DNA of 64,000 nt from an uncultured virus (IMG/VR IMGVR_UViG_3300029928_000270). Taxonomy: Duplodnaviria; Heunggongvirae; Uroviricota; Caudoviricetes. Numbering within the stretch: the stretch's first letter is position 1; each line of letters begins with the position of its first letter. The stretch is from the IMG/VR virus record IMGVR_UViG_3300029928_000270; one strand, 5' to 3'. A program made the translations under genes and the position numbers. Positions 3,765 to 47,428 of this stretch are shown here, piece after piece. The notes beneath the pieces are model-generated. The model was not told where the DNA came from, ran no database searches, and saw only the letters and a list, made by a program, of their open reading frames with translations.

Positions 3765-5924
3765 ATGGCAGAAGAAAAGTTAGTCAATTCTGATTATGGC
3801 GAAGACAGCATTGATGGTTTCGAGTATGCAGAACGTGTACGTAAGAGACCTGCAGTTATGCTTGGTTCGGATGGTCTTGCAGGTGCGAAACATGGTTTCA
3901 TTGAAATCTATGGCAATGCACTTGATGAGGTATCTTCAGGATATGGAGATAGACTTGATGTAGCAAGATATTCCGATGGCTCAATCTCAGTTCGAGATTA
4001 TGGTCGAGGAGTTCCTCTTGGTTGGAACAGCAAGAAGGGTATGTATAACTGGCATCTTGTATACAATGAAATGTATATGGGTGGTAAAACAGGTAGTACA
4101 CAGGAACAGCTTCAGAAGGTAACAGATTGGAGCAAGTTCGACCCGAAGTCAATCAACTATCTGTTTGCAGTTGGCTTAAATGGCTTAGGTGCGGCGGCTA
4201 CACAGTATACATCTTCATACTTCGATGTAAAGTCCTACAAAGATGGGTATTGCACCGAAATGCATTATAAGGGTGGGTATCCTATCGTTGCAGGTGAGCC
4301 AAGAAAGGTTGATAAAGGTTTTGATTGGTCTTTATATAAGGAAAACAAGTATGAGACCGATGAGCCCAACGGTACATATGTACGTTGGAAACCCGATGAC
4401 AATGTTTTCAAAGATACGAATGTAACATTCCAGTATCTTAAGGAAGTATGTCAGGATATCTCCTGCGTAGCACATATCACTGTTAACATGTATGATGAAG
4501 ATACAAATACTCATCTGACTTTCGAAGCAGGCACTGAGAAGGACTTACTTGAAACTAAGTTGGGTGCTAAGTACGATGAAAGCATGCAGATTTTTGAGTG
4601 TAGCAACCTCACCCATGGGTATCGAAATAAGCAGGGCGAGAGATTTATTTATGTAGATGAAGCAAAGATTGTTTTCACCTTTGTAGATGACAATGCACCT
4701 GTAAGTTTCAATCACAACTATGTGAAGATGTACGGTGGCGCACACTTAACTGGGTATAATGTCGGCTTGTATAACTTCTTAAAGCCGATTTTAAGTCAGG
4801 CAGGTTTGACTTTGAAGGATAAGGACTACGCAGACACGTTAGCTTGTGTTATTTCTACACGTAGTAATGACTCCTCTTTCCAAGGTCAGACAAAGTTTGA
4901 AGTTGACAATGACCATATTACCAATATCATCGCAGACACGCTGACTGCGAAGTTGACAACAGAGTATGCGAAGGATAACCCTTTTGTAAAAGATTACGTA
5001 GCCATGATTATTGAACGTGCAAAATCACGTGAGGAGCAGGCTACACGGGCACAGATTTCAAGGGCAATGTCAAAGATGGCTCGCCAGAAGAAACCCGAAA
5101 AGTTCTCCACTTGTGAAGCATATGAGAAGCATCTTCCCGGTGCTGAGTTGTGGCTTGCAGAAGGTGACTCTGCTAAGGGTGCAATCATTTCAGTTCGTGA
5201 GTATGCTTTTCAGGCAGCTTTACCCTTAAGAGGTAAGGTTTTGAACGTTGAGAAGGCATCTGTTGAGGATATACTTGCAAACGAAGAAATCAAGAGTATT
5301 TTTGCACTCCTCGATACGGGTATGGACTTAGGCGGAGATGCTTCTACGTTTGACATATCACGGTTGCGTTTTGATAAGATTATCTTCGCAACTGATGCCG
5401 ATGAAGATGGTTTCCAGATACGGGTATTGCTTTTCTTGGTATTCTACCGCCTTGCACCGCAGTTACTTATGCCTTGTGGTGTAGATGAGCGTGGGCGTGC
5501 TATCAGTCACGTATATATCGCAGAGACACCTCGTTTTGGTATTTCACTTCGTGACGGCTCTATGGTATATGCAAATACTGATGAGGACAGGGACAAGCTC
5601 TATAAGCAGTATGCAGGTCAGGTAGTTGGTACTCAGCGTTACAAAGGTTTAGGTGAAACCTCTCAGGAAGTGCTAAGTACAACAACAGTAAACCCTGCAA
5701 CAAGAAACCTTATTCCCGTAGTTATGGATTTCAGTGACAACAATCTGAGAGATTGTATTGATGCACTTTTTGGTAAGGACAAGTTTAAGTTACGCAAGAA
5801 TATTCTTGCAGAAATCCTTGGTGGGGATGTAGTTGATATGATGTCTGATATGGACATGAAACTTGAAGCGATTGAAAACTCCGAGTTTGATGAAGATACT
5901 GATGTAGAGGACATTACACTGTAG
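3765..5924 (+). CDS. gyrB: Type IIA topoisomerase subunit B (GyrB/ParE-like)
   Basis: VRKRPAV, EIYGNALDE, DYGRGVP, GLNGLG (GHKL ATPase); AEGDSA, PLRGKVLN, DADEDG (TOPRIM); QRYKGLGE. Confidence 0.95.
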   Translation: MAEEKLVNSDYGEDSIDGFEYAERVRKRPAVMLGSDGLAGAKHGFIEIYGNALDEVSSGYGDRLDVARYSDGSISVRDYGRGVPLGWNSKKGMYNWHLVYNEMYMGGKTGSTQEQLQKVTDWSKFDPKSINYLFAVGLNGLGAAATQYTSSYFDVKSYKDGYCTEMHYKGGYPIVAGEPRKVDKGFDWSLYKENKYETDEPNGTYVRWKPDDNVFKDTNVTFQYLKEVCQDISCVAHITVNMYDEDTNTHLTFEAGTEKDLLETKLGAKYDESMQIFECSNLTHGYRNKQGERFIYVDEAKIVFTFVDDNAPVSFNHNYVKMYGGAHLTGYNVGLYNFLKPILSQAGLTLKDKDYADTLACVISTRSNDSSFQGQTKFEVDNDHITNIIADTLTAKLTTEYAKDNPFVKDYVAMIIERAKSREEQATRAQISRAMSKMARQKKPEKFSTCEAYEKHLPGAELWLAEGDSAKGAIISVREYAFQAALPLRGKVLNVEKASVEDILANEEIKSIFALLDTGMDLGGDASTFDISRLRFDKIIFATDADEDGFQIRVLLFLVFYRLAPQLLMPCGVDERGRAISHVYIAETPRFGISLRDGSMVYANTDEDRDKLYKQYAGQVVGTQRYKGLGETSQEVLSTTTVNPATRNLIPVVMDFSDNNLRDCIDALFGKDKFKLRKNILAEILGGDVVDMMSDMDMKLEAIENSEFDEDTDVEDITL

Positions 5925-30593: not shown

Positions 30594-33500
30594 ATGAAAA
30601 AACTGAAGAAGTGTATTAAATCAGTAATATCATTTTCTCTTGCAGTAGTTATGCTTTTTAGTGGCATATCTCCATTAGGTATATTTGCGGCGAGTGCAAG
30701 TTCTTTTGGGGTATGGCAGACTGATGGCAATTTTACTGTAACAGAAAATGGTACGTATGTAATCTATGCAAAGGATGCAGTAGGCAATACTACGTCCATT
30801 GAGATTACTGTTAATAATATAGACTATACACCGCCCACCCTTGATGTTGGGTATTCTACTACTGAGTGGACTAAGGATGGTGTTAAGTTAGTACTTACTT
30901 CTGTAGACCAAGCAAGTCCGGGAGGTACAGCAGGTACTGTCAGTCTCAGTGTTGTAGGTTCAGATGGAACAAGCTATCCGACAGACCACTTATTCACCTT
31001 AAATACAAGTGGTACTGTAACATCTACTGATGATGTTGGTAACGCAGTTTCAAAACCTTTCAGTATAACGAATGTGGATACAGTAGTTCCGAGTATTTCA
31101 ATTTCAGCTGATATTACTTCTCCAACAAACGGAAATGTAACGCTTAAGATTAGTGGTTCTGATGCAGAGTCAGGATTAAATGCAAAACCGTATAGTTGGG
31201 ATGGAACAACATGGACAGATGTAGCAACCAAGACAGTTAGTGCAAATGGTGTGTATACAGGCTACATTAGAGATGCAGTTGGCAATATCTCATCCACCAC
31301 AATCTCGGTAGCCAATATAGATAAAGTAGCACCAACCATAAGTGGGTATTCTTACAGTACTGAGGCTCCTTGTAACACCTCAGTTGTAGTAACTGTAAAT
31401 GCAACAGATACAGGTTTAGGTCTTGCCGACTCTGCTTACAGTTTTAACGGTGGAGCATATGGCACTTCCAACAAGTTAACAGTTACTGCAAACGGTACTT
31501 ATACAGTTGCAGTTAAGGATAAGGCAGGAAACATTACAAACGGTTCATTCAAGTTAAGCAATCTTGATTTTGAAGCTCCAGTTATATCCTCTGTTGTCCC
31601 CAGTACCACTGCTGAAACGAATACGGACGTAACTCTTACGATAAATGCTACTGATAATGTAGGTGGTCTTGGTTTAGCAGACAAGGCTTACAGACTTCAG
31701 GGATATGAGAATTGGCAGACATCTAATGTTGTAACTGTAACATGTAACGGAACTTATACCGTAGAAGTAAAGGATGAGGCGGGAAACATTGCAAGTAAGT
31801 CAATTGAGATTACAAACATAGATAAGGAACCCCCTACCGCCAGTCATGTATTAAATATTACATCTCCTACGAATACAGATGTAGTTGCAACCTTAACGAT
31901 ACTCGATAATAAGGGTATTAAGAAAGTTGTTACTCCAGATGGTACTGTTGTTACTCAGGTTAGTTTCCAAAGCATAACAGATTATACATTCTCAAAGAAC
32001 GGTAGCTACACCTTTGAGATTTGGGATACTGCTGATAATAAGACAACTCATACTGTAGACATTTCCAATATCGATAAAGATAAACCAGTAATCGACAGTA
32101 TTGAAAGGAGTACTACTAAGGAATGTAATACTTATGTAGATATTACTGTTACTGCTCACGATGTAGGCTTGGGTCTTGAAGCTAAGGCTTTCAAGTTTAC
32201 AGGGGGGGATTGGCAGAGTGCAAACACATTTCGGGTATCTCAGAACGGTACTTATTCCGTAAGCGTAAGGGACGTTGCAGGCAACATAACAACTCAGGAG
32301 TTCTCAGTTCTTAACCTTGACTTTGATAAGCCAGTAATTAAAGCGATGACCTTAAGTACTACCTCTCAGACAAATAAGGATTTAACGTTAACTGTAACTG
32401 CTGAGGATATAGGCTTAGGTTTAGCTAAGAGTGCTTACCGTATCAATGGTAGTGCTTGGCAGGAGAGCAATGTATTTACTATCGCAGAGAATGGCACGTA
32501 TACAATAGAAGTAATTGATAAGGCAGGAAACATTCAAACTGGCACTAAGACGGTTACTAATATTGATAAGGTAGCTCCCAAGCTGAGTGCTACTGTAAAT
32601 ACCACTGAACCGACAAATCAGGATGTGGTAGTTACGTTAAAAGCTTCTGATGATGTTGAAATTTCCAAAGTTTTTGACGCAAACGGCGAGTCCATTAGCT
32701 TAACAAAGGTTTCAAACGAGTATACAGGCACAATTTCTGAGAGTGTAAATGGTACTTTCACATATAAAGCAGTTGATACGGCAGGCAACGAAACTACTTG
32801 CACAGTTAAGATTACAAATATTGATAAGTCCAATCCAGTAATTGATAGTATTGGTAGAAGCACAACAGTTCCTGTAAATACTCAGGTAGTTATTACAATC
32901 AATGCTCATGATGTAGGTCTTGGTTTAGCAGATAAGCCTTACAACTTCGATGGCACAGGTTGGGTATCTGATAAGACGAAAGTCATTACAGCTAACGGAA
33001 ACTATCGTATATCTGTAAAAGACGTTGCAGGAAACATCACTACGCAGACATATAATGTAATGAACTTAGACTTTGACGCTCCCAAAGTAAATGGGGTATC
33101 CTTAAGCACTACGAGTCCTACAAATAAGGATGTAGTTCTTACGATTGATGCAGAAGATGTAGGTCTTGGTTTAGCAGATAAGCCTTATAGACTCAAGAAT
33201 GGTACTTGGCAGACAAGTCCGAAGTTTACTGTTTCTCAGAATGGAACATATACATATGAGATAATTGATAAAGCTGGTAATATTGCTTCTGTATCAAAAG
33301 AAGTAACGAATATCGATAAAGTTGCACCTACAATAAGTGCTAAGGTAAATACGACAGACCCTACAAACAAGGATATTGAGGTAACCTTAACGGCAAGTGA
33401 TAATGTGGGTATTGCGAAGGTTGTAAATACCAGCGGTGAAGTACTCAATGGTACTGCAAGTAGTGGTAATGTGGTGTATACGACTTCCGAAGTTCAGAAC

Positions 33501-36500
33501 GGAACTTATACTTATACAGTTACTGATACTGCAGGAAATACCAGTTCAGCGACAGTTATACTTGGAAATATTGATAAGAGTAATCCAGTTCTTGATAAGA
33601 TTTTAAAGTCTACGGAAGACCCTACAAATACAAATGTAGTTGTGACAGTTACAGCGCATGATGTTGGTTTAGGTTTAGCAGACAAGCCTTACAAGTTTGA
33701 TAGTAATGATTGGACTGACGTATCTGCAATAACAATAACCAGTAATGGTACTTATACTGTTCAGATTAGAGATAAAGCTGGTAACGTTATCACTAAGAGC
33801 TATGAGGTAAGTAATTTAGATTTCATAGCACCTATAATAAGCTCGGCAAGAGTTCTTCAGACAAGACCAGTTAAGGAGTCAGCAAGAATTGCAGTTCAGG
33901 CTACTGACGAAGGTTTTGGATTAGCAGATAAGGCATACAAGTTGAATGACGGAGATTGGCAAACTGATAACTGGTTTGATGTGACAGACAATGGAACTTA
34001 CACGGTATATGTTTGTGATAAGGCAGGAAATATTACATCAACCACTGTAGAAGTAACAAATATAGACAGAGTTAAGCCCGAAATTACGTATACTGTTAGC
34101 ACAACAGAGCCTACACCTACTTTAAGTATTGAAGTAGTCGGTACAGATAACATGGAGTTAGGGGCAGTAACTTGCAGTGATAGTCGTGTGGTCAAGGGGA
34201 AAACAAACTGGGTATCTAAGACTGAGTGTAGGCAGATATTCCTTATAAATCAGAACGGTACTTACAGATTTGATATACGGGACTTTGTAGGAAATACAAA
34301 CTATGTTGAGGTTACAATAGACAATATAGATAATGTAGCACCTACGATAGATAAGATTATAAAGAACCCTAATGTACCTACAAATGCTCCTTTGGAGATA
34401 ACAATAATTGCAAGCGATGTTGGTTTTGGTCTTGCAGATGAACCTTACAGGGTGGATGGAAGTGCTTGGCAGTCCAGTAACAAGTTTATGATTGCAGATA
34501 ATGGTGTACATGAAATAGATGTTAGAGATAAAGCTGGCAATACTATAATGATGACTACAGATATCTCAAATCTTGATTACGACAACCCAGTTATTGACGA
34601 GGTTACACAGGATATTACAGAGCAGACAAACACTGATGTAGTTCTTACAGTTACTGCTCATGATGTAGGGTTAGGTCTTGCAAAGAAGCCATATAAGTTA
34701 GAAGACAGCTCTTGGGTATCCAGTAATAAGTTTACTGTCGAAGAGAACGGTGACTATGTAATAAGTGTTAGGGATGAGGCAGGTAATATTGAAACTTACA
34801 CTCATACAGTTAGCAACATTGATAAGGAGTTACCAGTAGCTTCTCATACGGTGGATATTGATACTCCTACAAACAGTGACGTAGTTATAACTTTAAAGGC
34901 TACAGATAATGTAGAAATTAAGAGTATTACTCTTCCAGACAAAGCTGTACAGAATATTGGAAGTAATGAAGCGACAATTCCATTCACTGTTGTTGAGAAT
35001 GGAACCTACACCTTTAAGGTACTTGACACTGCAGGGAATATTACTACTTATCCAGTTGAAATAGATAATATTGATAAAAATCCTGCTGAAATAGTTGCTT
35101 CTCCGAGTGTGGAAGGTTGGACAAATCAGAATATTGAGTTGAATGTAGTGGTAACTGACGATACTCTTGTAAGAAAGGTTCAATCTCAGGGTATTTGGTA
35201 TGACTTAGATGCAGGTGAATTACCTAATGGAGCAGTTGTTGAGAAAGGTGGTCAGGATAGAATACTTAAGGTTAAGTTTAGTATTCCAGTTTCAGATAAT
35301 GGAACTTTTGAATTTAAGGCTATTGACTTTGGTGGTTTAGAGACAACATACTCATATGAGGTAACGTACATTGATAGAGTAGACCCCGAAATCTTCGCAA
35401 AGGTTGTGAATAGTGACCTTACTAAGGATAATGTAGATATTGCAATAACTACAAGCGATGCCTACGGTGAAGTAAGTCGGATAGTATTGCCTGGAGATAA
35501 CAGAATTGATGGCTCAGAGACAACTTATATTGCTACTGATAATGGAGAGTACAAGTTCACAGTTATTGATAAAGCAGGCAACTCTGCTGAAGCAGTTGTA
35601 AAGGTAGGAAACATCGATAGAGTTGCTCCTACGTTCACTTATGAGTTAAGCCCAAATGAGGATAGTTGGTCTAATGACAGCGTATTGCTTAAGGTAATTG
35701 GCTCAGATGAGAATGGTATCTCAGCATACAAGTTGTTCTTTGGTGAAGAAGAAATCAAAGCACTTGAGGGTGGGGTATTCCAGTTGTTTGAGAATGGTAC
35801 TTACAGAATTGTAGTTGTAGATACTGTAGGTAACTATTCAGGAACCGAGATTACTGTAGGTAATATAGATAAGGACGAGCCCACGATAGCAGTTGGTCTT
35901 AAGAATAAGTATTGGGTAAACAAGTCAAATACCATTGTAATAACTGGTCAGGACAACGCCAGTGGGGTATCAGGCTATAGCTTAGACGGTGAGAATTGGC
36001 AGGAGTCAAATGAGTTCAAAGTAAGTTATAAGAATTCATATACAGTTTATGTTAAAGACCTTGCAGGTAACGTATCAAGCATGACAGTTTACTTTGACTT
36101 GGTAGAGGAGCCTATTGAAGATGTTGAACCTTTACTTGAGGAAGAGCCAAAGGACGAAGATGAAGATATTGTAGCTCCTAAGTCCGACTTAGATGATGGT
36201 AGCTTGATTGTAATCGGCGAGTTAACTGACTTACCTGTTGAAGCAACCGAAGCAGAAGCAACAGAAGGCGATGTACTAAAAGTAGTTCAAAAGATTGCGG
36301 AAAATGTTGTGGAAGTAGCTAAGGTTGTATTCCCTTATGCCGCAGTTCTGCTCTTAGCAACAGTTGGATGTTTAGTATTCATTCTGTTGACCGATGGTGT
36401 TAGGGTATATGGTAAGAACAAGAAGGGCAAGTGGCAGTACTTGGGTATTGCAAGATGCCATAAGGGAGTAGTTGGATGTACCGTTAAGGTAAAGAGAAGT

Positions 36501-36653
36501 GTACTTAAGAAAGTTGATAGTGCCGATTATCTGCTGAAGTTTAATACCAGATACAGTACAATCAATAAGGGACTTGAACTCTACATTAAGGTTGGCAATC
36601 AGGCTATAACCAGTAATGTGTATAAGCAGGTTGAGTTCTCTGTAATGAAGTAG
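30594..36653 (+). CDS. 2019-aa membrane-anchored Ig-like repeat surface protein ('stalk')
   Basis: Signal peptide ending FAASA; half repeat followed by 21 ~83-aa repeats (NIDK..P...NGTY...D.AGN); acidic linker; TM helix; basic C-terminal domain. Confidence 0.9.
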   Translation: MKKLKKCIKSVISFSLAVVMLFSGISPLGIFAASASSFGVWQTDGNFTVTENGTYVIYAKDAVGNTTSIEITVNNIDYTPPTLDVGYSTTEWTKDGVKLVLTSVDQASPGGTAGTVSLSVVGSDGTSYPTDHLFTLNTSGTVTSTDDVGNAVSKPFSITNVDTVVPSISISADITSPTNGNVTLKISGSDAESGLNAKPYSWDGTTWTDVATKTVSANGVYTGYIRDAVGNISSTTISVANIDKVAPTISGYSYSTEAPCNTSVVVTVNATDTGLGLADSAYSFNGGAYGTSNKLTVTANGTYTVAVKDKAGNITNGSFKLSNLDFEAPVISSVVPSTTAETNTDVTLTINATDNVGGLGLADKAYRLQGYENWQTSNVVTVTCNGTYTVEVKDEAGNIASKSIEITNIDKEPPTASHVLNITSPTNTDVVATLTILDNKGIKKVVTPDGTVVTQVSFQSITDYTFSKNGSYTFEIWDTADNKTTHTVDISNIDKDKPVIDSIERSTTKECNTYVDITVTAHDVGLGLEAKAFKFTGGDWQSANTFRVSQNGTYSVSVRDVAGNITTQEFSVLNLDFDKPVIKAMTLSTTSQTNKDLTLTVTAEDIGLGLAKSAYRINGSAWQESNVFTIAENGTYTIEVIDKAGNIQTGTKTVTNIDKVAPKLSATVNTTEPTNQDVVVTLKASDDVEISKVFDANGESISLTKVSNEYTGTISESVNGTFTYKAVDTAGNETTCTVKITNIDKSNPVIDSIGRSTTVPVNTQVVITINAHDVGLGLADKPYNFDGTGWVSDKTKVITANGNYRISVKDVAGNITTQTYNVMNLDFDAPKVNGVSLSTTSPTNKDVVLTIDAEDVGLGLADKPYRLKNGTWQTSPKFTVSQNGTYTYEIIDKAGNIASVSKEVTNIDKVAPTISAKVNTTDPTNKDIEVTLTASDNVGIAKVVNTSGEVLNGTASSGNVVYTTSEVQNGTYTYTVTDTAGNTSSATVILGNIDKSNPVLDKILKSTEDPTNTNVVVTVTAHDVGLGLADKPYKFDSNDWTDVSAITITSNGTYTVQIRDKAGNVITKSYEVSNLDFIAPIISSARVLQTRPVKESARIAVQATDEGFGLADKAYKLNDGDWQTDNWFDVTDNGTYTVYVCDKAGNITSTTVEVTNIDRVKPEITYTVSTTEPTPTLSIEVVGTDNMELGAVTCSDSRVVKGKTNWVSKTECRQIFLINQNGTYRFDIRDFVGNTNYVEVTIDNIDNVAPTIDKIIKNPNVPTNAPLEITIIASDVGFGLADEPYRVDGSAWQSSNKFMIADNGVHEIDVRDKAGNTIMMTTDISNLDYDNPVIDEVTQDITEQTNTDVVLTVTAHDVGLGLAKKPYKLEDSSWVSSNKFTVEENGDYVISVRDEAGNIETYTHTVSNIDKELPVASHTVDIDTPTNSDVVITLKATDNVEIKSITLPDKAVQNIGSNEATIPFTVVENGTYTFKVLDTAGNITTYPVEIDNIDKNPAEIVASPSVEGWTNQNIELNVVVTDDTLVRKVQSQGIWYDLDAGELPNGAVVEKGGQDRILKVKFSIPVSDNGTFEFKAIDFGGLETTYSYEVTYIDRVDPEIFAKVVNSDLTKDNVDIAITTSDAYGEVSRIVLPGDNRIDGSETTYIATDNGEYKFTVIDKAGNSAEAVVKVGNIDRVAPTFTYELSPNEDSWSNDSVLLKVIGSDENGISAYKLFFGEEEIKALEGGVFQLFENGTYRIVVVDTVGNYSGTEITVGNIDKDEPTIAVGLKNKYWVNKSNTIVITGQDNASGVSGYSLDGENWQESNEFKVSYKNSYTVYVKDLAGNVSSMTVYFDLVEEPIEDVEPLLEEEPKDEDEDIVAPKSDLDDGSLIVIGELTDLPVEATEAEATEGDVLKVVQKIAENVVEVAKVVFPYAAVLLLATVGCLVFILLTDGVRVYGKNKKGKWQYLGIARCHKGVVGCTVKVKRSVLKKVDSADYLLKFNTRYSTINKGLELYIKVGNQAITSNVYKQVEFSVMK

Positions 36654-38380: not shown

Positions 38381-38505
38381 TCAAAGGTCGCTTGGTGGGG
38401 ATTGATACCGAGCGACTTTTCTTTTATGTTGAAGTTAGTAAATGCAAACGGGTATGCGGTTAAGTTAAAAGTAATTATTTGAAAAATTTAGGGGAGGTGT
38501 GCGCA

Positions 38506-39099
38506 ATGTTTTATATAAACTATGCAGATAATAACCTTTTAGGTGTTGTAGACACAAAAGATTTAGTTGAGGAACGCTACACTTATGCACAGGTAGAGGC
38601 TTTCACGAAGAATGGTATTCAGATATTTACTCAGGACATTCAGATGCATATGCTTAACTTAGCTTATGCTTACCATAATCTTATAGATGCTCTCGGCACT
38701 AAAGACAATGCAATAATAAGTTCAGCTTTGGATTATGCCGAGGGTGGAAATGCAAAGTTAAGTAAGGTAACACTTATCAGGATTGAAGCACCTCTTAAGT
38801 TGTATGTTTCCTGCATATTAGGTGTAAGAAAAGCTTACGGGTATTATGATTTTGGATACAGAAGTTTAAATTCAAAGATGCTTAAGTGGTTCAAATACTT
38901 GAAAGCTTCTATCTTGCAGTGTTATAGTGTTGATTGGTCTGATGATAATAACACTTATACACGTCCAGATGGACAGTTTGGAAACTCTCAGTATGACGAA
39001 TTGTCTAAAATACTGGACAAGAAAATTGATGTTTTCTGCAAGGAGTTTAAGATGCAGAAACGTATCGTGAACGAGTGGGTAAAAACACATATGCAGTAA
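38506..39099 (+). CDS. DTxD-module family protein (tandem array, copy 1)
   Basis: MFYINY...GVVDTKDLVEERY...YAEG...FGYRS. Confidence 0.8.
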   Translation: MFYINYADNNLLGVVDTKDLVEERYTYAQVEAFTKNGIQIFTQDIQMHMLNLAYAYHNLIDALGTKDNAIISSALDYAEGGNAKLSKVTLIRIEAPLKLYVSCILGVRKAYGYYDFGYRSLNSKMLKWFKYLKASILQCYSVDWSDDNNTYTRPDGQFGNSQYDELSKILDKKIDVFCKEFKMQKRIVNEWVKTHMQ

Positions 39100-39113
39100 T
39101 GGGGGTATTTGCT

Positions 39114-39725
39114 ATGTTCTATATAAATTATTGTGATTGGGTAGGCGCAGGTGTTGTAGACACGGCGGATTTAGTAGAAGAGTATCATACTTATGATGAT
39201 ATAAGTGATTATGAGAATAGAGGATTTATAATATTACCTCAGGAGGCTCAGACTTATTTGTTTTGGCACATGCGTTACTATTTAGAATTAATGTATGGTT
39301 TACGAGATAAGGGTAAGTCAGAAATATCAGCAGTCTTAGCGTATGCTGAGGGGAGGTCAAAAGATATAAGTAAACTTGAAATGGGGTTTCTCAGTACTCA
39401 TTATGTAAAAAATTATTCTGAGATGGTGACTGAGATAAGAACAAGATTTAAATATCCCAGCTTTGGGTATCGTAGTATAAAGAAGCTTACCTATAAGTTT
39501 TTTAGTAAGTTAATGGAAGTTGCAAAATCTAAGAGTGATATCGATTGGTTTGATGAAGATGATACTTATGAGAGGGAAGATGGTCATCTTGGAAGTTATG
39601 CATGGGATAAAATTTTTGATGACTTAGACAAGCTTGGAGATGATTTTTGTGAGAAATTCAGGTTTCAGAAAGACTTGTTAGATGAGTGGCTTGTATTTGC
39701 ATACGATTTAGACTCAGCATGCTAA
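39114..39725 (+). CDS. DTxD-module family protein (tandem array, copy 2)
   Basis: MFYINY...GVVDTADLVEEY...YAEG...FGYRS. Confidence 0.8.
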   Translation: MFYINYCDWVGAGVVDTADLVEEYHTYDDISDYENRGFIILPQEAQTYLFWHMRYYLELMYGLRDKGKSEISAVLAYAEGRSKDISKLEMGFLSTHYVKNYSEMVTEIRTRFKYPSFGYRSIKKLTYKFFSKLMEVAKSKSDIDWFDEDDTYEREDGHLGSYAWDKIFDDLDKLGDDFCEKFRFQKDLLDEWLVFAYDLDSAC

Positions 39726-39740
39726 ATGGAGGTATTTACT

Positions 39741-40337
39741 ATGTTTTATGTAAACTATCGGGATGATAAAGTTTCCAGTGTTGTAGATACAAAAGATTTA
39801 GTTGAAGAGTATTATACAAATGCCCAGATAGAGGAATTTCGTAAAGCAGGTATAACAATATTAACACAAGAAGACCAAATGGGTATGTTTGAGATTGCAA
39901 AGTATTATTTGCGTCTGATAGATAGTATTAAATCTAAGGATAAGAAAGTAATATCTGATATCGTAACCTATGCAGAGGGGCATATTAACATGGAAGATGC
40001 CATGCATTTATCTGAAGTGGAAGACTTTAGAGCAATCTTGGGGTTTAATAGTGTACTGTGGCAATGTAGAGAGGTAGTAGGAGATAATACCATAAGTCAT
40101 AAGGATATAAATAGAGAGTTGCTTAAAAATATTAGACGTTTGATGAATTTGATTAGGGAATTTACTGAACCGATGAATACATGGGGATATCTAAGTACAA
40201 ATGAGTGTAATCATTTTGTAAAGAAATTGCGTAGATATGAGGAGTCTATGTGTCAGTCCTGTAAGTTACAGTTTGACTATTTATCAGATTGGGCAATTTT
40301 GTCGTTCATGATAATGTTTCCAGTATTTGATGATTAA
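39741..40337 (+). CDS. DTxD-module family protein (tandem array, copy 3)
   Basis: MFYVNY...VVDTKDLVEEYY...YAEG. Confidence 0.8.
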   Translation: MFYVNYRDDKVSSVVDTKDLVEEYYTNAQIEEFRKAGITILTQEDQMGMFEIAKYYLRLIDSIKSKDKKVISDIVTYAEGHINMEDAMHLSEVEDFRAILGFNSVLWQCREVVGDNTISHKDINRELLKNIRRLMNLIREFTEPMNTWGYLSTNECNHFVKKLRRYEESMCQSCKLQFDYLSDWAILSFMIMFPVFDD

Positions 40338-40361
40338 TAAGTGTTGAGAGGAGCGTTTCTT

Positions 40362-40985
40362 GTGTTCTATATAAATTATGTAAAAGGTGACAATATTGGT
40401 GTTGTAGATACCACAGATATGGTTGAGGAAGTATATACCTATAAGCAGGTAGAGTCTTTTGTGAAGCGGAATATTACAATTCTCCCACAGGGTGCACAGT
40501 ATTACTTCCTTGATTTCATGAGTAAGTATTTTGATTTGGTAGGCATCTTGGGTACTTCTAATGAGAGTGTTATAAAACCAGTTTTAGACTTTGCAGAGGG
40601 AAGAGTTAAAGTTTTGCCTGAGTCATTTCGTGGTTGCAATAAGGAAGCAATAAACTCTTATCATGTAGCGGTTAACTATATAAGAAACGTTTACTGGTAC
40701 AGCGGCTTTGGGTATAAGAGCATAAACCCTATGGTGTATAAGCGGTTCAAGGAATTGTCAGATATTACAAATGAAATCTACAACATTAACTGGAAAGATG
40801 AGTCCTGCACTTACAGCCTGCCAGATGGTTCAGTTGGAAATACTCAATATGATGCTTATGTAGAGAAGCTGGATAAGGCAGTGGACGCTTTTTGTAGGGA
40901 CTGCAAATTTAACCGTAAGATGGTTAATAAGTGGATAAGTAAGTCAACAATAAATCTTGAGGATATAAAGATTTATAGAAGTTAG
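40362..40985 (+). CDS. DTxD-module family protein (tandem array, copy 4)
   Basis: GTG start; FYINY...GVVDTTDMVEEVY...FAEG...FGYKS. Confidence 0.8.
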   Translation: MFYINYVKGDNIGVVDTTDMVEEVYTYKQVESFVKRNITILPQGAQYYFLDFMSKYFDLVGILGTSNESVIKPVLDFAEGRVKVLPESFRGCNKEAINSYHVAVNYIRNVYWYSGFGYKSINPMVYKRFKELSDITNEIYNINWKDESCTYSLPDGSVGNTQYDAYVEKLDKAVDAFCRDCKFNRKMVNKWISKSTINLEDIKIYRS

Positions 40986-41407: not shown

Positions 41408-41785
41408 ATGAAGTGTCCTTATTTTAATGCAAGAGATTGTTTTAGCAATGCTTTTATAGCGTTAAGTATGCAGAGAGGTACTACTTGTTTACCTCTTTAT
41501 CTTTCTGATGTTGAGAAATACATGAAAGAGTTTCAGGAGATGATTATAAGGTGTAGTTTTTACGATGCAGAGGATGTACAGCAGGTAGGTAGTATTGATG
41601 ATTTTCTTATAGAAAATCTCATGTTCAAAGCAGGAAAAGATGCTAAGGGAGTATACTATAAAGTAGTTGATGGGTATTCTCTTGATGTATTCTCCTTAGT
41701 TTGCAAGTACAGATTAGGAATAAGCCTTGAGTTGCTTCAGATTTATCAATATTTAGACCATAATTTTGAATTTTGTTTAAGTTAA
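41408..41785 (+). CDS. Hypothetical protein, weakly similar to 43738
   Basis: D..SNA.I.....L..Y pattern shared with 43738; GGAGG RBS. Confidence 0.65.
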   Translation: MKCPYFNARDCFSNAFIALSMQRGTTCLPLYLSDVEKYMKEFQEMIIRCSFYDAEDVQQVGSIDDFLIENLMFKAGKDAKGVYYKVVDGYSLDVFSLVCKYRLGISLELLQIYQYLDHNFEFCLS

Positions 41786-41788
41786 TGG

Positions 41789-41817
41789 TTGACTTTTGGT
41801 CAGTTGTATGGTATAAT
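41789..41817 (+). promoter_or_regulatory. Strong sigmaA-type promoter driving the tRNA/ncRNA cluster
   Basis: TTGACT-17 bp-TATAAT with extended TG. Confidence 0.85.
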
Positions 41818-41857
41818 TTATTCATACTTAAAGGTTTAGGCACCTCGACAAGTATAC

Positions 41858-42042
41858 GGCTTAATACACCTCAGCTACAAGAGGTCTGTTATAAGCGACA
41901 AGGCTTGGCAGATAGAACTTCAGAGTGTATCGATGCAAACAAACTTTGCGACAGGTATAGTTCGGCTTAGGGTCTATTAATGATAGATGGGTAAGTTAGA
42001 ACACCGTCGAAAGGGAGACACGGTATCCACAAGTATTAAGCC
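41858..42042 (+). ncRNA. Unidentified multibranch structured RNA (domain A)
   Basis: Perfect 10-bp closing stem GGCTTAATAC/GTATTAAGCC enclosing about five hairpins. Confidence 0.6.
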
Positions 42043-42048
42043 ACTTTT

Positions 42049-42136
42049 GCAGTAGTACTCAAGTGGTTGAAGAGGCTCCCCTGCTAAGGGAGTAGTTCGT
42101 TAAATCGAAGCGTGAGTTCAAATCTCACCTACTGCG
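42049..42136 (+). tRNA. tRNA-Ser(GCT)
   Basis: GCAGTAG/CTACTGC acceptor, CTCCC-CTGCTAA-GGGAG anticodon arm, long variable arm, G73; CCA not encoded. Confidence 0.95.
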
Positions 42137-42169
42137 CTCCCCGATAGGGTATTTAATAAAGTTTTTTTT

Positions 42170-42259
42170 GGTGTAGTACTCAAGTGGCTTAAGAGAGCGG
42201 TCTTGAAAACCGTTAGTCCGATGTGAGTCGGAGCGTGGGTTCAAATCCTACCTACACCG
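42170..42259 (+). tRNA. tRNA-Ser(TGA)
   Basis: GGTGTAG/CTACACC acceptor, GCGGT-CTTGAAA-ACCGT, long variable arm, G73; CCA not encoded. Confidence 0.95.
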
Positions 42260-42281
42260 TTCTGCAGTAGCTCCATTGCAG

Positions 42282-42566
42282 ATTATAGTGTGAATGTGGC
42301 GGAGTTCTGCCACAGTATGAGGTTCTACGGTTGGGAGGTGTCGCTCCCATAGTCGTAGGAAAGGGCTACGATGGGCGGTGTCGCATCCATCGAACCTCAG
42401 ACAGAATGGACAAATGCAGTGTTCCACCCATCACAGATTGTAGTTGGGTTCTTATCAGAGCAAGGAATGATGAATTCCCTAAAATGTTGCATTTAGGAGA
42501 GAACAGACCCATATATGTTCCTCTGAATTTTGAAGTATGGAGTCAGTCACGGCAGAGATGCCGTGC
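42282..42566 (+). ncRNA. Unidentified structured RNA (domain B) with twin GUGUCG-loop hairpins
   Basis: Nested stems ATTATAGTGTGA/TCACAGATTGTAGT, TGTGGCGGA/TCTGCCACA, TGAGGTTC/GAACCTCA, TGGGTT/GACCCA, CACGGCA-GAGA-TGCCGTG. Confidence 0.6.
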
Positions 42567-42585
42567 AAATTTTTGAAGAGTTTTT

Positions 42586-42659
42586 GGACTCTTAGCTCAG
42601 TTGGTTAGAGCAACCGGCTCATAACCGGTCGGTCGTAGGTTCGAGTCCTACAGAGTCCA
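42586..42659 (+). tRNA. tRNA with CAT anticodon, most likely tRNA-Ile2 (lysidine type)
   Basis: GGACTCT/AGAGTCC acceptor, ACCGG-CTCATAA-CCGGT; body resembles Firmicutes tRNA-Ile2 rather than initiator Met. Confidence 0.85.
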
Positions 42660-42683
42660 CTTGGTACATTTTAATAATCTTGT

Positions 42684-42909
42684 AGGGTTGCAACAGACGG
42701 TTGTGTAAACTGACTCAGTCTTTGACTGGTATGCGAAGAAGTCCCGAAAAAGTGGCACTAATGTGATTGAAAAATCGCACCTATGAGGAAAATGCTCAAT
42801 GTACCTATTTTTACTGGATTTCCATAGCCTGCGTCCAGTTGGTTGGAAACCCGTATCAGTTGGCACTGGTGTAACAGCCAGTGTTAGCATTGGGGGACGG
42901 CATAACCCT
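42684..42909 (+). ncRNA. Unidentified structured RNA (domain C)
   Basis: AGGGTT/AACCCT closure, GACTGGTATG/CGTATCAGTT helix, TGTGATT-GAAA-AATCGCA tetraloop hairpin, CACTGG/CCAGTG hairpin. Confidence 0.55.
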
Positions 42910-42930
42910 TATATCCTTTCTTTTGTGGTA

Positions 42931-43018
42931 TGAGATGTGGCGAAACGGTAACGCATCGGGTATTTCTCTGGTCGGGAGATTACCTTGAGTATTGGAGGTT
43001 CGACTCCTCTCATCTCAT
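42931..43018 (+). ncRNA. tRNA-like RNA with a 33-nt elongated anticodon arm
   Basis: TGAGATG/CATCTCA acceptor, GCG-AAACGGTAA-CGC D arm, GGAGG-TTCGACT-CCTCT T arm; no canonical anticodon loop. Confidence 0.75.
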
Positions 43019-43199
43019 ATCTTGTGCAGTAGCGCAAGACGTACGCTTTTGTTTTTCTATGTGTTTTATTTGCATGCTAAGAAACGTTAGCTCTTGGGGG
43101 CATGCATTTTGGGCTGAGTAAGAGCGACACTTCTCTCAGATACGTGGGACGGTTCAGCCCTCTCCACCCAGTTTAGTAGGTGAAATATTGTAGTTATTA

Positions 43200-43259
43200 A
43201 TGGGTATTAGCTCTGTTAGCATAACTTAAGTTCTGCTAATTTTGTTAGTATCCATTTTT
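43200..43259 (+). terminator. Long hairpin plus U tract closing the RNA cluster
   Basis: ATGGGTATTAGC...GTTAGTATCCAT followed by TTTTT. Confidence 0.65.
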
Positions 43260-43335
43260 ATGTATGAGTCAAACTTAAAATTCACTTAATACTATGTTAT
43301 AATAGCAGTAATAAATATGAAGTGGGTGATTTTGT

Positions 43336-44121: not shown

Positions 44122-44145
44122 GTGCAGCAAGAGGGAGGTATAAGT

Positions 44146-44640
44146 ATGTTTTATTTAAAGGATTATTATGATGCACACGGTACAGACAGGAAGTTGGTAA
44201 TAGTAGATACATCGGATAATGTTGAGGAAACTTATCCTCAGGAGGTTATCTTTGATGCAATGAGGAAGTCACGCTTCAATCTCAAGATTTTGGGTATTGT
44301 GTACTCAGGTTCGGATTTCAGACTTAATAAGTACTGCAGAAGTTTAGTATATCTTGAAAACCTATCAAATGGGGACTGCTTAAAACTTATTTATCGTGAC
44401 AGTTCATGTAATCCTGATAGATATGTTTTATATCTTGGTGTTGGTGCTGATTCTGTTACTGAGAAATTCTTGGATATTGACGGCAAGATTCTTAAGTATA
44501 GAAAAGATAGGTTTCTTAAGGGCTTAGTAAAAGTGCAGTTGCACAAAGAGGGTATTGATGCGGACAATGGAACTCCAGTAGTTCCAAAGGGCGTTGAGTT
44601 AGAGTTAAAACAGGTTTATGCAAATGCTCAAAGGAGGTAA
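44146..44640 (+). CDS. DTxD-module family protein
   Basis: MFYL...LVIVDTSDNVEETY...KILGI. Confidence 0.75.
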   Translation: MFYLKDYYDAHGTDRKLVIVDTSDNVEETYPQEVIFDAMRKSRFNLKILGIVYSGSDFRLNKYCRSLVYLENLSNGDCLKLIYRDSSCNPDRYVLYLGVGADSVTEKFLDIDGKILKYRKDRFLKGLVKVQLHKEGIDADNGTPVVPKGVELELKQVYANAQRR

Positions 44641-44648
44641 ATTAAGGT

Positions 44649-45155
44649 ATGTTTTATGTAACGAAGAGAGTTGATAGTCATCATTTTATGGTGAAAGATA
44701 CTTATGACGGCGCAGTAGAGATGTACTCTGATGAGCAGTTGTATAATGTGGTAAAGAATGGGGTAGTACGTGTTCTTGGTGTGCATTATAAGGTTTCTAA
44801 GGAAGGTATAGAAGCATTTATAGTTGTGCCTGCCAGTAAGAGTGGTGCACTTGAAGATGCAGATTGCTTTGATGATTATGCAAGACATGTATTAACTAAC
44901 CAGTTAAGGGTGGTTGGTGTTAGGTTTTCTGAGTCAGATTGTATCTACGAGGACAGTATTTTGACTGTTGCAATACCTTTTATTTGTGGAGAGTCTGCTT
45001 GGAGGGTTAATGAGTATGGTGAGTGGGTTCTTGTAAATAAGGGTCTTGAAAGACAAGTTATAAGGGAGACAATGCGGTGTGCAAAGGAAGAGGGAATTAA
45101 GATTTGCATTTATCATGGAGAAAAAGGCTACACCTACTTCAGATTTGATGTGTAA
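44649..45155 (+). CDS. DTxD-module family protein
   Basis: MFYV...FMVKDTYDGAVEMY...RVLGV. Confidence 0.75.
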   Translation: MFYVTKRVDSHHFMVKDTYDGAVEMYSDEQLYNVVKNGVVRVLGVHYKVSKEGIEAFIVVPASKSGALEDADCFDDYARHVLTNQLRVVGVRFSESDCIYEDSILTVAIPFICGESAWRVNEYGEWVLVNKGLERQVIRETMRCAKEEGIKICIYHGEKGYTYFRFDV

Positions 45156-45250
45156 CTAATATTTGTATCAAAAAGCATAAAATCTCTGCTTGACTTTTCT
45201 TAAGTTACATGGTAAAATATGTTAGCAAAGTCAAAAGAGGGGTATTTGTT

Positions 45251-45694
45251 ATGGTAGTTATTGAGAACCGTTCTGCACGTTACAATTACTTCATTGAAGA
45301 CACTTTAGAGTGTGGAATTTCCTTGAAAGGCAATGAGGTAAAGAGTATCAGAGCAGGAAAAGCAAGTATAAATGAAGCATGGTGTCAGATACAGGATGGC
45401 AATCTTGTAGTGAGGGGTATGTTTATCTCTAAGTGGGACACTGCTAACTCTTTTGATGTAGAGGAGAGAAGAGAACGTCAGTTATTAGCGCACAAGCGTG
45501 AAATTCTCAAAGTTAAGCAGAGCATTTCTGAAGTTGGTTACACTTTAGTGCCTTTGAAGGTTTATTTTGTAGGTTCTAAGTGTAAGATGCTTGTAGGTAT
45601 CTGCAAAGGCAAGCATGTCTACGATAAGAGAGAGGTTCTGAAGAAGAAAACCGTTGACATGAGTATAAGAAAAGCCATGAAAGGCTCTTTGTAA
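45251..45694 (+). CDS. smpB: SsrA-binding protein SmpB
   Basis: ENRSARYNYFI..ECGISLKGNEVKSIRAG...LLAHKREI...TLVPLKVYF...GKHVYDKRE; promoter TTGACT..TAAAAT at ~45190. Confidence 0.97.
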   Translation: MVVIENRSARYNYFIEDTLECGISLKGNEVKSIRAGKASINEAWCQIQDGNLVVRGMFISKWDTANSFDVEERRERQLLAHKREILKVKQSISEVGYTLVPLKVYFVGSKCKMLVGICKGKHVYDKREVLKKKTVDMSIRKAMKGSL

Positions 45695-45706
45695 TGGAGG
45701 GTATTT

Positions 45707-45850
45707 ATGAAGATGTCAGTTGAAGTTAAAACTCCAATGACCTCAGAAGATATTGAGCATGAGGTAGTTGGTTCTACAAGAGTAATGGGTATGGTAGTAA
45801 TTGTGACTCTTGCATTACTTGCGTTTGTGATTGTCGCAGTTATTATATAA
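45707..45850 (+). CDS. 47-aa protein with C-terminal TM helix, between smpB and ssrA (absent from the ORF track)
   Basis: GGAGGG RBS; MKMSVEVKTPMTSEDIEHEVVGSTRVMGMVVIVTLALLAFVIVAVII*. Confidence 0.65.
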   Translation: MKMSVEVKTPMTSEDIEHEVVGSTRVMGMVVIVTLALLAFVIVAVII

Positions 45851-45857
45851 CATTTAA

Positions 45858-46222
45858 GGGTTAGTAAAGGTTTCGACAGGGACTTGAAAGCCTGCATTAC
45901 ACTTAGGGTGGTAACCTTATATAACCAAACCAAATAAACGCTAACAAACGTTTAGTTGCCGTAGCAGCCTAATAGGTGTGTTACACCAAAAAGGTAGTCG
46001 GGTGGATAGGCTACTTGAGGTTCAAAAAGTTCCACGCTTTGTTGATGCTCAGATTCTAAAGAGGTACGAGCGACCCAGTAAAGCGAGCATACGCAGTCAT
46101 GTAGGGATTTAGGACGCCCTGAGTAGTGATTGGGAAGATACATACTGAAGTCCGAGAGATGAGTGTAGTAAGGTGTAGGTTAATAGGGTTTTTGGACAGG
46201 GGTTCGATTCCCCTCTAATCCA
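45858..46222 (+). ncRNA. ssrA: tmRNA, tag (A)ANKRLVAVAA
   Basis: 5' GGGTTAG-TAAAGGTTTCGAC, 3' AGGGG-TTCGATT-CCCCT-CTAATCC-A with G3:U70; resume codon GCT at 45940 after ATAAAC; TAA TAG at 45970-45975. Confidence 0.95.
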
Positions 46223-46375
46223 TTTTTCGTTCAGAGTGAGCGGATACGTTTCGGTAGATACGAAAACCGATGTGCAATGATAGTAGTTCAATGCTGAGGG
46301 CGGCTGAGATTAAAGACAGGAGGGTGAAGTCTTGGGAAGTCGCTACTGGAGTTGCTCAAACAAGTGGGGGTATTT

Positions 46376-46894
46376 ATGTTTTACGTTTCAGAACTTAGAG
46401 GAAGGATGCATAACGGTTTTGTAGGAGTCACAGATACTACTGACGGTGTAACAGAATACTATGCAGATAATGTCCTTGTTAAGTTAATCCAAAGTAAAGA
46501 AATACCCAGTGAGATTTATGGTATTGATATTTATAATAATACGTTAGAGGCTACTGTTTTACATATAGATAAGACTTTGGATGAGTCCGAGTTACGTAAA
46601 CGCATAGATAATTGGAAACGTGTGCATAATCCTTGGACTGGTTTGCCAGTTAAGTATTATTTGGCAGAGTCTAAGGTTGGAACAGTTATAATTGTTAAGT
46701 ACACAGACACAACACCCGAGGGTAGGGTATTCAGTGGTACTTCAAAGATTACTCGTTTATCTTATGACAAATGGGTATTTGAGGATGATAATAGTACTTT
46801 TTCAGGTCAGACTGGAGATACAAGTTTTGCTACAAGTTGTGTTGAGTCCTCAGCCGTATACATGAGGTTGCAGTCAGTACATGTAAGAAGTTAA
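46376..46894 (+). CDS. DTxD-module family protein
   Basis: MFYVS...VGVTDTTDGVTEYY...EIYGI; paralogue of 46916. Confidence 0.8.
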   Translation: MFYVSELRGRMHNGFVGVTDTTDGVTEYYADNVLVKLIQSKEIPSEIYGIDIYNNTLEATVLHIDKTLDESELRKRIDNWKRVHNPWTGLPVKYYLAESKVGTVIIVKYTDTTPEGRVFSGTSKITRLSYDKWVFEDDNSTFSGQTGDTSFATSCVESSAVYMRLQSVHVRS

Positions 46895-46915
46895 GTATCA
46901 GAGGGGGGTATTTGA

Positions 46916-47428
46916 ATGTTTTATGTGTCAGATATTAAAACCAGAGGTAAGTTTAAACTTGTAGGTGTGTCAGATACAAAAGACGGAGTTACAGAGTATT
47001 ATAGAGAGGATGCTCTCCTTAATCTGTTAAACGACAGAAAGGTTTATTGTGAGATATATGGAGTATTACCTCATGCAGATGAATTATGGCTTATTGCCTT
47101 GACTTTGAATAAGGATATAACTGCTAATGAGTTGAAGCATCGCATCCTTAATTGGAGAAAGGTTCTTAGCCCAGAGTCTAAGTTGCTTGTGCAGTACTAT
47201 CTTTTCGAAGCTAAGATTGGAACTGCAATGACTATTGCAGTTGACAAAATTGGAGATAACGGTCAGAGGTTTAAGTATGGTATACGCTATGTTAAGATAG
47301 ATGAGGATACATGGGAGTATAATAATACTTTATTTAACTCAAAAGGATTGGCAGATTTCTTAATGGGGAGCGGTGTCGTAGCTTTCAGTGTTGGGTATGA
47401 TGATTATTTTGAAAAAGTAGTTTTTTGA
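46916..47428 (+). CDS. DTxD-module family protein
   Basis: MFYVS...VGVSDTKDGVTEYY...EIYGV. Confidence 0.8.
   Translation: MFYVSDIKTRGKFKLVGVSDTKDGVTEYYREDALLNLLNDRKVYCEIYGVLPHADELWLIALTLNKDITANELKHRILNWRKVLSPESKLLVQYYLFEAKIGTAMTIAVDKIGDNGQRFKYGIRYVKIDEDTWEYNNTLFNSKGLADFLMGSGVVAFSVGYDDYFEKVVF

Follow-up and report, generated by a model that had tools for sequence, protein, structure and literature searches.

Independently gained and lost RNA cassettes among the tRNA genes of a phage-like element, and a probably incidental complementarity between two of them

The tRNA genes in the window, by which we mean the whole stretch of 64,000 nucleotides that was analysed, are separated by small RNA cassettes that are non-coding, partly conserved in structure, and gained and lost independently of each other. 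Two of these cassettes, which we call B1 and D, carry the loops GUGUCG and CGACAC, and a preliminary description of this DNA had read these as kissing loops. CGACAC is indeed the exact complement of GUGUCG, and the complementarity is even longer than was claimed (22 bp). The reading that we prefer, with a probability of roughly 0.55, is that the complementarity is real at the sequence level and the RNAs themselves are real, that their match is incidental, and that nothing calls for a contact between the loops of B1 and D. The evidence leans against a conserved contact because loop 1 of B1 differs in all three related sequencing runs that hold it, because a fourth run (X3) without the twin-hairpin arm keeps the partner cassette, and because the three further copies of CGACA, correctly placed by the preliminary description at 41846, 41896 and 41949, all lie in a cassette (A) that is absent from all four runs.

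In the arrangement that we favour, the operon spacers (A, B1, B2, C, a degenerate tRNA and D) would be interchangeable small structured RNA cassettes, probably transcribed from a single promoter and, by analogy with tRNA processing, cut apart when the tRNAs mature. The twin hairpins form a tandem duplicate that caps a variable arm of B1, the duplication and the variability both being observed. The match to D would then be a chance likeness between G+C-rich hairpins or a leftover of inverted copying, and B1, B2 and D may each act as a small RNA of its own.

The tRNA operon and its relatives

The window encodes gyrase/topoisomerase subunits, a DnaB-like helicase, an NAD-dependent ligase domain and SmpB, as well as a tmRNA (45858-46225) and five tRNA-like genes. 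Such genes are described as being carried also by huge phages and by some large plasmids (PMC7162821). We infer the phage identity of the element, since in a scan of 61 ORFs Pfam identified no virion protein. The best matches of the SmpB protein in viral contigs show 49-65% identity and include records of 250-332 kb with tRNA clusters of their own. The region is best explained as an operon of tRNA genes in a giant phage-like element of the gut. A public contig of 191 kb (L122) is identical to the window (100% over 5544 nt) and is not an independent relative.

Several features of the surroundings were recorded in passing. The element has its own SmpB and a divergent tmRNA at 45209-46225 (tag ANKRLVAVAA, 83.5 bits). 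The operon is flanked by runs of ORFs that by eye look paralogous (38479-40985, 44122-45155 and 46352-47428), with an MFY(I/V) start and no Pfam match. Further upstream, 30594-36653 encodes a secreted-looking protein of 2019 amino acids with many short Ig-like repeats, for which the Pfam matches are weak only.

From 5' to 3' the operon consists of a promoter-like site, cassette A, tRNA-Ser(GCT), tRNA-Ser(TGA), B1, B2, tRNA(CAT), C1, C2, the degenerate tRNA and D (Table 1). The promoter-like site matches the sigma70 consensus and is the likely start of the operon, which would place the transcription start near 41824. Directly after D there is an A+T-rich imperfect inverted repeat (43199-43256, arms of 31 nt, 74% alike), possibly the end of the operon.

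Table 1. Features of the tRNA operon in window coordinates
Feature	Position	Strand	Basis or remark
sigma70-type promoter-like site, TTGACT-17-(TG)TATAAT	41789..41817	+	11 of 12 consensus matches; consensus match only
Cassette A, folded RNA closed by GGCTTAATAC/GTATTAAGCC, three CGACA copies, optional	41824..42047	+	z -3.4, a fold equalled by none of 200 shuffles
tRNA-Ser(GCT)	42049..42137	+	missing together with cassette A in relatives
tRNA-Ser(TGA)	42170..42259	+	tRNA calls
Small hairpin CTGCA/TGCAG after tRNA-Ser	42262..42281	+	double change (U-A to C-G) at 42263/42280, present in all four runs
Cassette B1, predicted four-way junction RNA	about 42262-42445 (junction 42281..42445)	+	folds; z -2.9 for the whole of B
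Duplicate unit 1, hairpin with loop GUGUCG (42338-42343)	42325..42358	+	repeat alignment and fold
Duplicate unit 2, weaker hairpin with GUGUCG (42378-42383)	42366..42392	+	repeat alignment and fold
Cassette B2, conserved RNA, two terminal hairpins, the last with GNRA loop, terminator-like score	42447..42566	+	homologue in L120
tRNA with CAT anticodon, between the would-be partners	42586..42659	+	74.3 bits; ARAGORN tRNA-Met
C1, optional folded insert	42661..42814	+	fold of 42660-42930 z -1.6 (marginal)
C2, long hairpins, kept in relatives	42815..42925	+	fold and coverage of relatives
Degenerate tRNA with acceptor, D and T arms	42931..43018	+	42 bits; tRNA-??? call
Cassette D, 75-nt RNA with CGACAC (43125-43130)	43096..43170	+	sequence
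Stretch of D complementary to 42322-42346 (14+8 bp)	43122..43150	+	duplex prediction

Relatives that are about 87-91% alike over long pieces were found in three runs from pig gut and one from faeces, which together represent three studies (X1-X4); X1 and X2 belong to one study and all four consist of DNA contigs. The differences considered here comprise 40 of 261 substitution entries and 12 of 44 indel entries, the substitutions extending no further than 42366. The Logan contigs end at tRNA(CAT), and the B and D pieces of a run are linked by their similar depth alone (10 and 11 in X1). The promoter region is covered in the relatives as far as 41834-41836. Cassette A and tRNA-Ser(GCT) are skipped in all four runs, C1 is skipped in the main contigs of all four, and 42815-43269 is a single piece in each of them.

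The loops of interest sit in separate small cassettes with a tRNA gene and the degenerate tRNA between them, and the proposal that kissing loops link distant domains of one RNA is unlikely with a tRNA(CAU) gene of 74 bits lying between the partners. In its broader form, that proposal would make the whole of 41824-43175 a single large ornate RNA like ROOL or GOLLD, in which the tRNAs are embedded and the kissing loops drive multimers. ROOL and GOLLD are described as phage-encoded, often near tRNA islands and held together by kissing loops, and the GOLLD linker sometimes holds tRNAs (10.1101/2024.12.08.627333). The location in a phage-type tRNA cluster fits this, the phage identity of the element being inferred, and it is the likeness that the cassettes share with ROOL, GOLLD and OLE. 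However, Rfam returned no ROOL, GOLLD or OLE row at E values up to 10 and at gathering score matched only tRNAs and none of the cassettes, which unlike these large RNAs measure 75-300 nt and are lost independently. The stretch is not inherited as a unit: A and C1 are absent from four of four runs, the twin arm is absent from one of four, and B2 occurs alone in the distant element L120 (see below). The loops of ROOL and GOLLD are described as conserved or covarying in that source, whereas loop 1 of the window varies and may or may not covary with its partner. We regard a single ornate RNA as extremely unlikely.

Cassette B1 and the twin hairpins

Double changes that keep pairs in the 5' part of B1 indicate a genuine structure, one arm of which varies; besides that in the small hairpin after tRNA-Ser, a G-C pair has become A-U at 42302/42307 in all four runs. 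The predicted junction consists of a closing stem, a hairpin at 42295-42314, the variable arm (42318-42399) and a hairpin near 42407-42426, and the fold of cassette B as a whole is better than those of all shuffles. Two substitutions, 42264 G>A (two runs, small hairpin) and 42295 T>A (three runs, B1), break a pair unless the partner has also changed among the remaining entries. A coding role of B was considered and rejected: only an 81-codon frame with a TTG start overlaps it, and X3 deletes part of this.

The letters of the twin GTGTCG loops, one in TGGGAG/CTCCCA and the other in CGATGGGCG/CATCCATCG, are as the preliminary description gave them. Its view that the two stems are different does not hold, as 42332-42350 and 42372-42390 are direct repeats, 84% alike and 40 nt apart, and the twin loops are identical because of one tandem duplication. 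TRF reported no tandem array here; the duplication came from a separate search for repeat families (family D8). In hairpin 2 a C.A mismatch lies right under the closing pair, and ViennaRNA favours a 4-nt GUGU loop. The closing pair of hairpin 1 has a probability of 0.18 and that of hairpin 2 one of 0.02, values that do not exclude the twin fold because nearest-neighbour folding ignores kissing. The twin fold (-35.7) ties with a rod-like fold of the arm (-36.1).

In the relatives, loop 1 reads AUGUUU in X1 and X2 and GUGUUU in X4, which corresponds to 3, 3 and 2 changes among its six bases (positions 42338, 42342 and 42343). A core UGU(C/U), defined after seeing the data, is kept in these three runs. 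The differences considered leave all 12 bases of the TGGGAG/CTCCCA stem untouched. Five of them lie side by side in the linker 42359-42363, in accord with the hairpin-1 fold. In place of the arm 42324-42406, X3 has 28 different nucleotides, capable of a single short hairpin, and it keeps 42815-43269.

These observations bear on the suggestion, made as an alternative in the preliminary description, that the twin loops are tandem protein-binding (sponge) sites, and on its extension that they are decoys for anticodon loops with a codon-like triplet (GUC or GUU, valine), D being unrelated in either case. Two like loops do adjoin, and in X1, X2 and X4 the central GU(C/U) still reads as a codon for valine. 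The identity of the loops is, however, explained by the duplication, two to three of six loop bases vary, and the arm is dispensable in X3. With the twins recognised as a duplicate with a variable loop, the sponge reading has lost its basis. A tRNA with a GAC anticodon was found neither among 211 tRNA calls in 494 loci nor, by a strict pattern, in five genomes. The sponges CsrB and RsmZ contain many loops with GGA, whereas the window has only two loops, with GUGUCG, which vary, and Rfam gave no such row. We hold protein or decoy sites to be very improbable, and a duplication at the tip of a variable arm would account for the twins.

Cassette D and the CGACAC hairpin

Regarding D, the letters of the CGACAC loop and its stem CTGAG-TA-AGAG/TTCT-CTCAG are as the preliminary description stated, and the hairpin itself turns out to be a minor fold. 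It competes with GGGCUGA/UCAGCCC, its closing pair has a probability of 0.02-0.16 in four contexts, and a loose hairpin filter, which let 50 other 6-nt loops through, rejected it. The fold of 43020-43180 is not better than those of shuffles (z -0.04). Also in this area, GCATGC occurs twice in 43070-43106; it is self-complementary, and the alternative hairpin would sequester the 5' end of D.

A hand-built model of D has a terminal stem GGGGG/UCUCC with G.U as third pair, followed by A and then CCCA. This stem has 5 bp, and the exact register reaches a probability of at most 0.10. One C at 43169 is missing in all four runs, so that the end would read ACCA provided that the bases beside it have stayed the same. 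A G-U third pair is described as a determinant for AlaRS in tmRNA (PMC3985003). With this pair, the following A and its CCA-like end, the D model would resemble the acceptor stem of tmRNA and tRNA-Ala; unlike these it has a stem of only 5 bp, reads ACCCA, and shows no T-loop at the tRNA register. The tRNA and tmRNA models gave no match to D. The possible ending of D like an alanine acceptor stem, modelled in the absence of a tRNA body, is a lead only. A reading of D as canonical tRNA-Val was rejected on register: TTC lies 13 nt before the discriminator, and the corresponding distance in tRNA is 19.

Complementarity between B1 and D

The match comprises 14 contiguous bp between 42333-42346 and 43122-43135 (two G-U) and 8 bp more between 42322-42329 and 43143-43150 (two G-U), so that all four non-Watson-Crick positions of both helices are G-U. 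Only hairpin 1 carries the long match to D, and the pairing of loop 2 with D has a probability of 0.002. On both strands of the 64 kb, D is the best non-self partner of 42320-42349 (-36.0 kcal/mol; next -29.7), and the B1-D duplex is the best of 21 pairs of cassettes (-34.4; next -28.1). Cofolding of hairpin-1 constructs with D gives energies 2.4 to 7.0 kcal/mol below those of the monomers, and the probability of the duplex in the ensemble of 42262-43175 is 0.38. Among 18 real stretches from tRNA clusters the B1-D duplex is the strongest (next -31.0), the window stretch being also the most G+C-rich (0.44 vs 0.22-0.43).

A best inter-cassette duplex as strong as this one arose in 14 of 463 within-cassette shuffles and, in a slower run, in none of 15, and a 14-bp duplex with at most two G-U appeared in 4 of 60 shuffles. 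In 2000 shuffles some complementary pair of 6-nt loops was present in 23%, twin loops within 60 nt in 2.3%, and twins with a complement in 0.35%. Three occurrences of GCGACA in the stretch are reached by 0.1% of shuffles, yet each shuffle has about one 6-mer with a comparable pattern. The match between B1 and D is thus modestly beyond chance (about 3%), before allowing for its selection as striking. The same hexamer was seen in an unrelated viral contig (L016, 2980-3065), where three palindromic GCGACA...TGTCGC repeats lie upstream of a gene in the manner of DNA operators or iterons; the likeness to the window is limited to the hexamer.

A functional interpretation of the match would be that B1 and D form a working RNA pair from one operon, in which GUGUCG of hairpin 1 kisses CGACAC and may zip to the duplex of 14+8 bp. 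The duplex would open the GGGCUGA/UCAGCCC stem of D and so might switch folding, processing or stability, either in the precursor or in the cut products. In favour of such a pair speak the cofolding gain, the rank of D as best partner in the window, the shuffle result and the first place among the 18 stretches. The UGU(C/U) core of loop 1 that three runs keep is consistent with it as well, and so are the two near-equal folds of the twin arm, as for a switch. The changes in loop 1 hit both outer bases and include one wobble-compatible C>U, and 4-5 loop pairs survive with D unchanged. On the other hand, X3 keeps D without the twin arm, and loop 1 diverges faster than its surroundings. Loop 2 hardly pairs with D, the folding models populate hairpin 2 and the CGACAC hairpin only weakly, and the shuffles give no better than about 3% for a feature that was picked for standing out. 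Furthermore, kissing hairpins are described as tending to stall at 6 bp in a 3D simulation (PMC10798244), which may put the long duplex out of reach and would leave a 6-bp kiss unaffected. On balance a working pair appears unlikely. A more elaborate form, that the operon releases B1 and D as a trans-acting pair in which B1 captures the alanine-acceptor-like D and gates its processing or charging, with the loops drifting together as a strain specificity code, seems to us rather improbable.

A known system with such extended matches is CopA-CopT of plasmid R1, in which complementary hairpin loops have a complementarity that continues into the stems (PMC10798244). At the sequence level the B1-D loop complementarity likewise extends into the stems. 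Whereas CopA and CopT are almost perfect complements, B1 and D lie on the same strand 780 nt apart and match over 22 bp with four G-U and two interruptions. CopT leads the repA mRNA, whereas B1 and D lie among tRNA genes and neither leads a gene.

Alternatively, the loops might contact something nearer or different: UGU(C/U) could pair with GACA within B1 (42400-42403 or 42409-42412), or CGAC of D with a GGUCG loop in the degenerate tRNA. This loop lies 150 nt upstream of the CGAC of D, could form 4 bp with it, and travels with D in all four runs. The sequence matches, the fold of the degenerate tRNA and the coverage of 42815-43269 as a single piece in four of four runs are in line with a nearer contact, but four-base complements are common by chance, and we consider it quite unlikely. 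An incidental match between B1 and D remains our preferred reading.

Cassettes A, B2 and C and the degenerate tRNA

B2 has a homologue in a distant element whose SmpB is 56% identical (L120, 16929-17013, E 0.0024). In the alignment of the two, 29 of 30 cells are paired, and 3 of 7 pairs of the last helix are changed on both sides, in a comparison of two sequences only; 52 of 500 shuffles reach as much, and the result is suggestive only. The GNRA loop of the last hairpin is present in both the window and L120. By eye, B2 in L120 directly follows a promoter-like stretch, with neither B1 nor D, and for this reason we treat B1 and B2 as separate units. A reading of the hairpin 42548-42565 as a mere terminator was rejected, as its stem changes compensate and the GNRA loop is kept in L120.

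Cassette A, with two copies of GCGACA and one of TCGACA and a strong fold, has the appearance of a mobile RNA cassette of unassigned kind. By eye it showed a faint likeness to a group I intron core; this was dropped, as the Rfam search returned no such row. Part of C1 (42667-42805) occurs in X1 on a separate contig of 162 nt with 8 differences, which points to another context too.

Two forms are predicted for the anticodon arm of the degenerate tRNA, one with a loop of 8 nt and the other an extended hairpin that carries the GGUCG loop mentioned above. Two places in L221 (4367-4501 and 3039-3161) resemble it, with intact acceptor, D and T arms and an anticodon region that is replaced or much lengthened; the window copy and that at 4367 have a common start, GAGATGTGGCG. 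Other unusual tRNA-like features were noted in the records compared. L120 contains two tRNAs with 4-base anticodon calls, and ARAGORN calls a tRNA with a TTA anticodon, which reads the UAA stop, in the related record L342 (6451-6525, G001). A group II intron match lies near tRNA genes in the related record L338 (2429-2565, G004; 47 bits, above the cut-off). A motif GTGAT...ACAGC(A/T)A is common to several spacers (L221 2780-3120, L340 1970-2045), two of the copies being within a tRNA-like body, with no separate Rfam match.

Searches for homologues

In blastn of 41780-43250 against phages and plasmids the best matches listed fall on tRNAs, and no record covered 80% of the query; against 50,697 phage records B gave no match and D one chance match. 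The twin-loop pattern was found in at least 119 stretches of viral contigs, none of which has two hairpins of at least 4 pairs or a match outside tRNA. The B2 pattern retrieved only the L120 record from viral contigs, nothing from genomes, and six metagenome sequences, one of which is L122, the DNA of the window itself; the other five have no blastn match or tRNA. One pattern for B1 found nothing, and another found 37 stretches, none of them scored by model R3. For D, two viral and 112 genomic stretches fitted the pattern, with no nhmmer hit among the 114.

Searches by protein and by models R1-R3 extended this picture. A search with neighbouring proteins gave no close loci, and the SmpB loci in genomes look chromosomal by title and composition, with tRNA or tmRNA matches only. 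Over 20 viral records, models R1-R3 recovered only the L120 training sequence (R2 and R3 0 of 20), and over 14 sources R2 and R3 recovered only the window; these are one-sequence models, whose blanks are weak. A literature search confined to titles and the starts of abstracts found no paper that describes these cassettes.

Comparison with T4 RNAs and implications

In bacteriophage T4, RNAC and RNAD are encoded within the tRNA cluster and released by tRNA processing. They are the closest kind to the cassettes described here, being non-coding and folded, lying between tRNA genes, and having a structure that is kept in relatives. The likeness is one of kind; T4 belongs to another host group, and in the window there are several interchangeable cassettes in one operon. 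The T4 genes rnaC and rnaD are described as encoding small phage RNAs "of yet unknown functions" (PMC9697503).

Small folded RNAs of phage tRNA clusters are still without a function. The kissing claim from which this analysis started is unproven and probably incidental. To these RNAs the locus contributes three or more cassettes that no catalogue lists and that have a degree of structural support (B1, B2 and D), and it shows that such cassettes are gained and lost as units. If the pairing of B1 with D were true, it would provide a defined partner for two such RNAs. If D were alanylated, the element would have a minimal mimic of tRNA in addition to a tmRNA and SmpB of its own.
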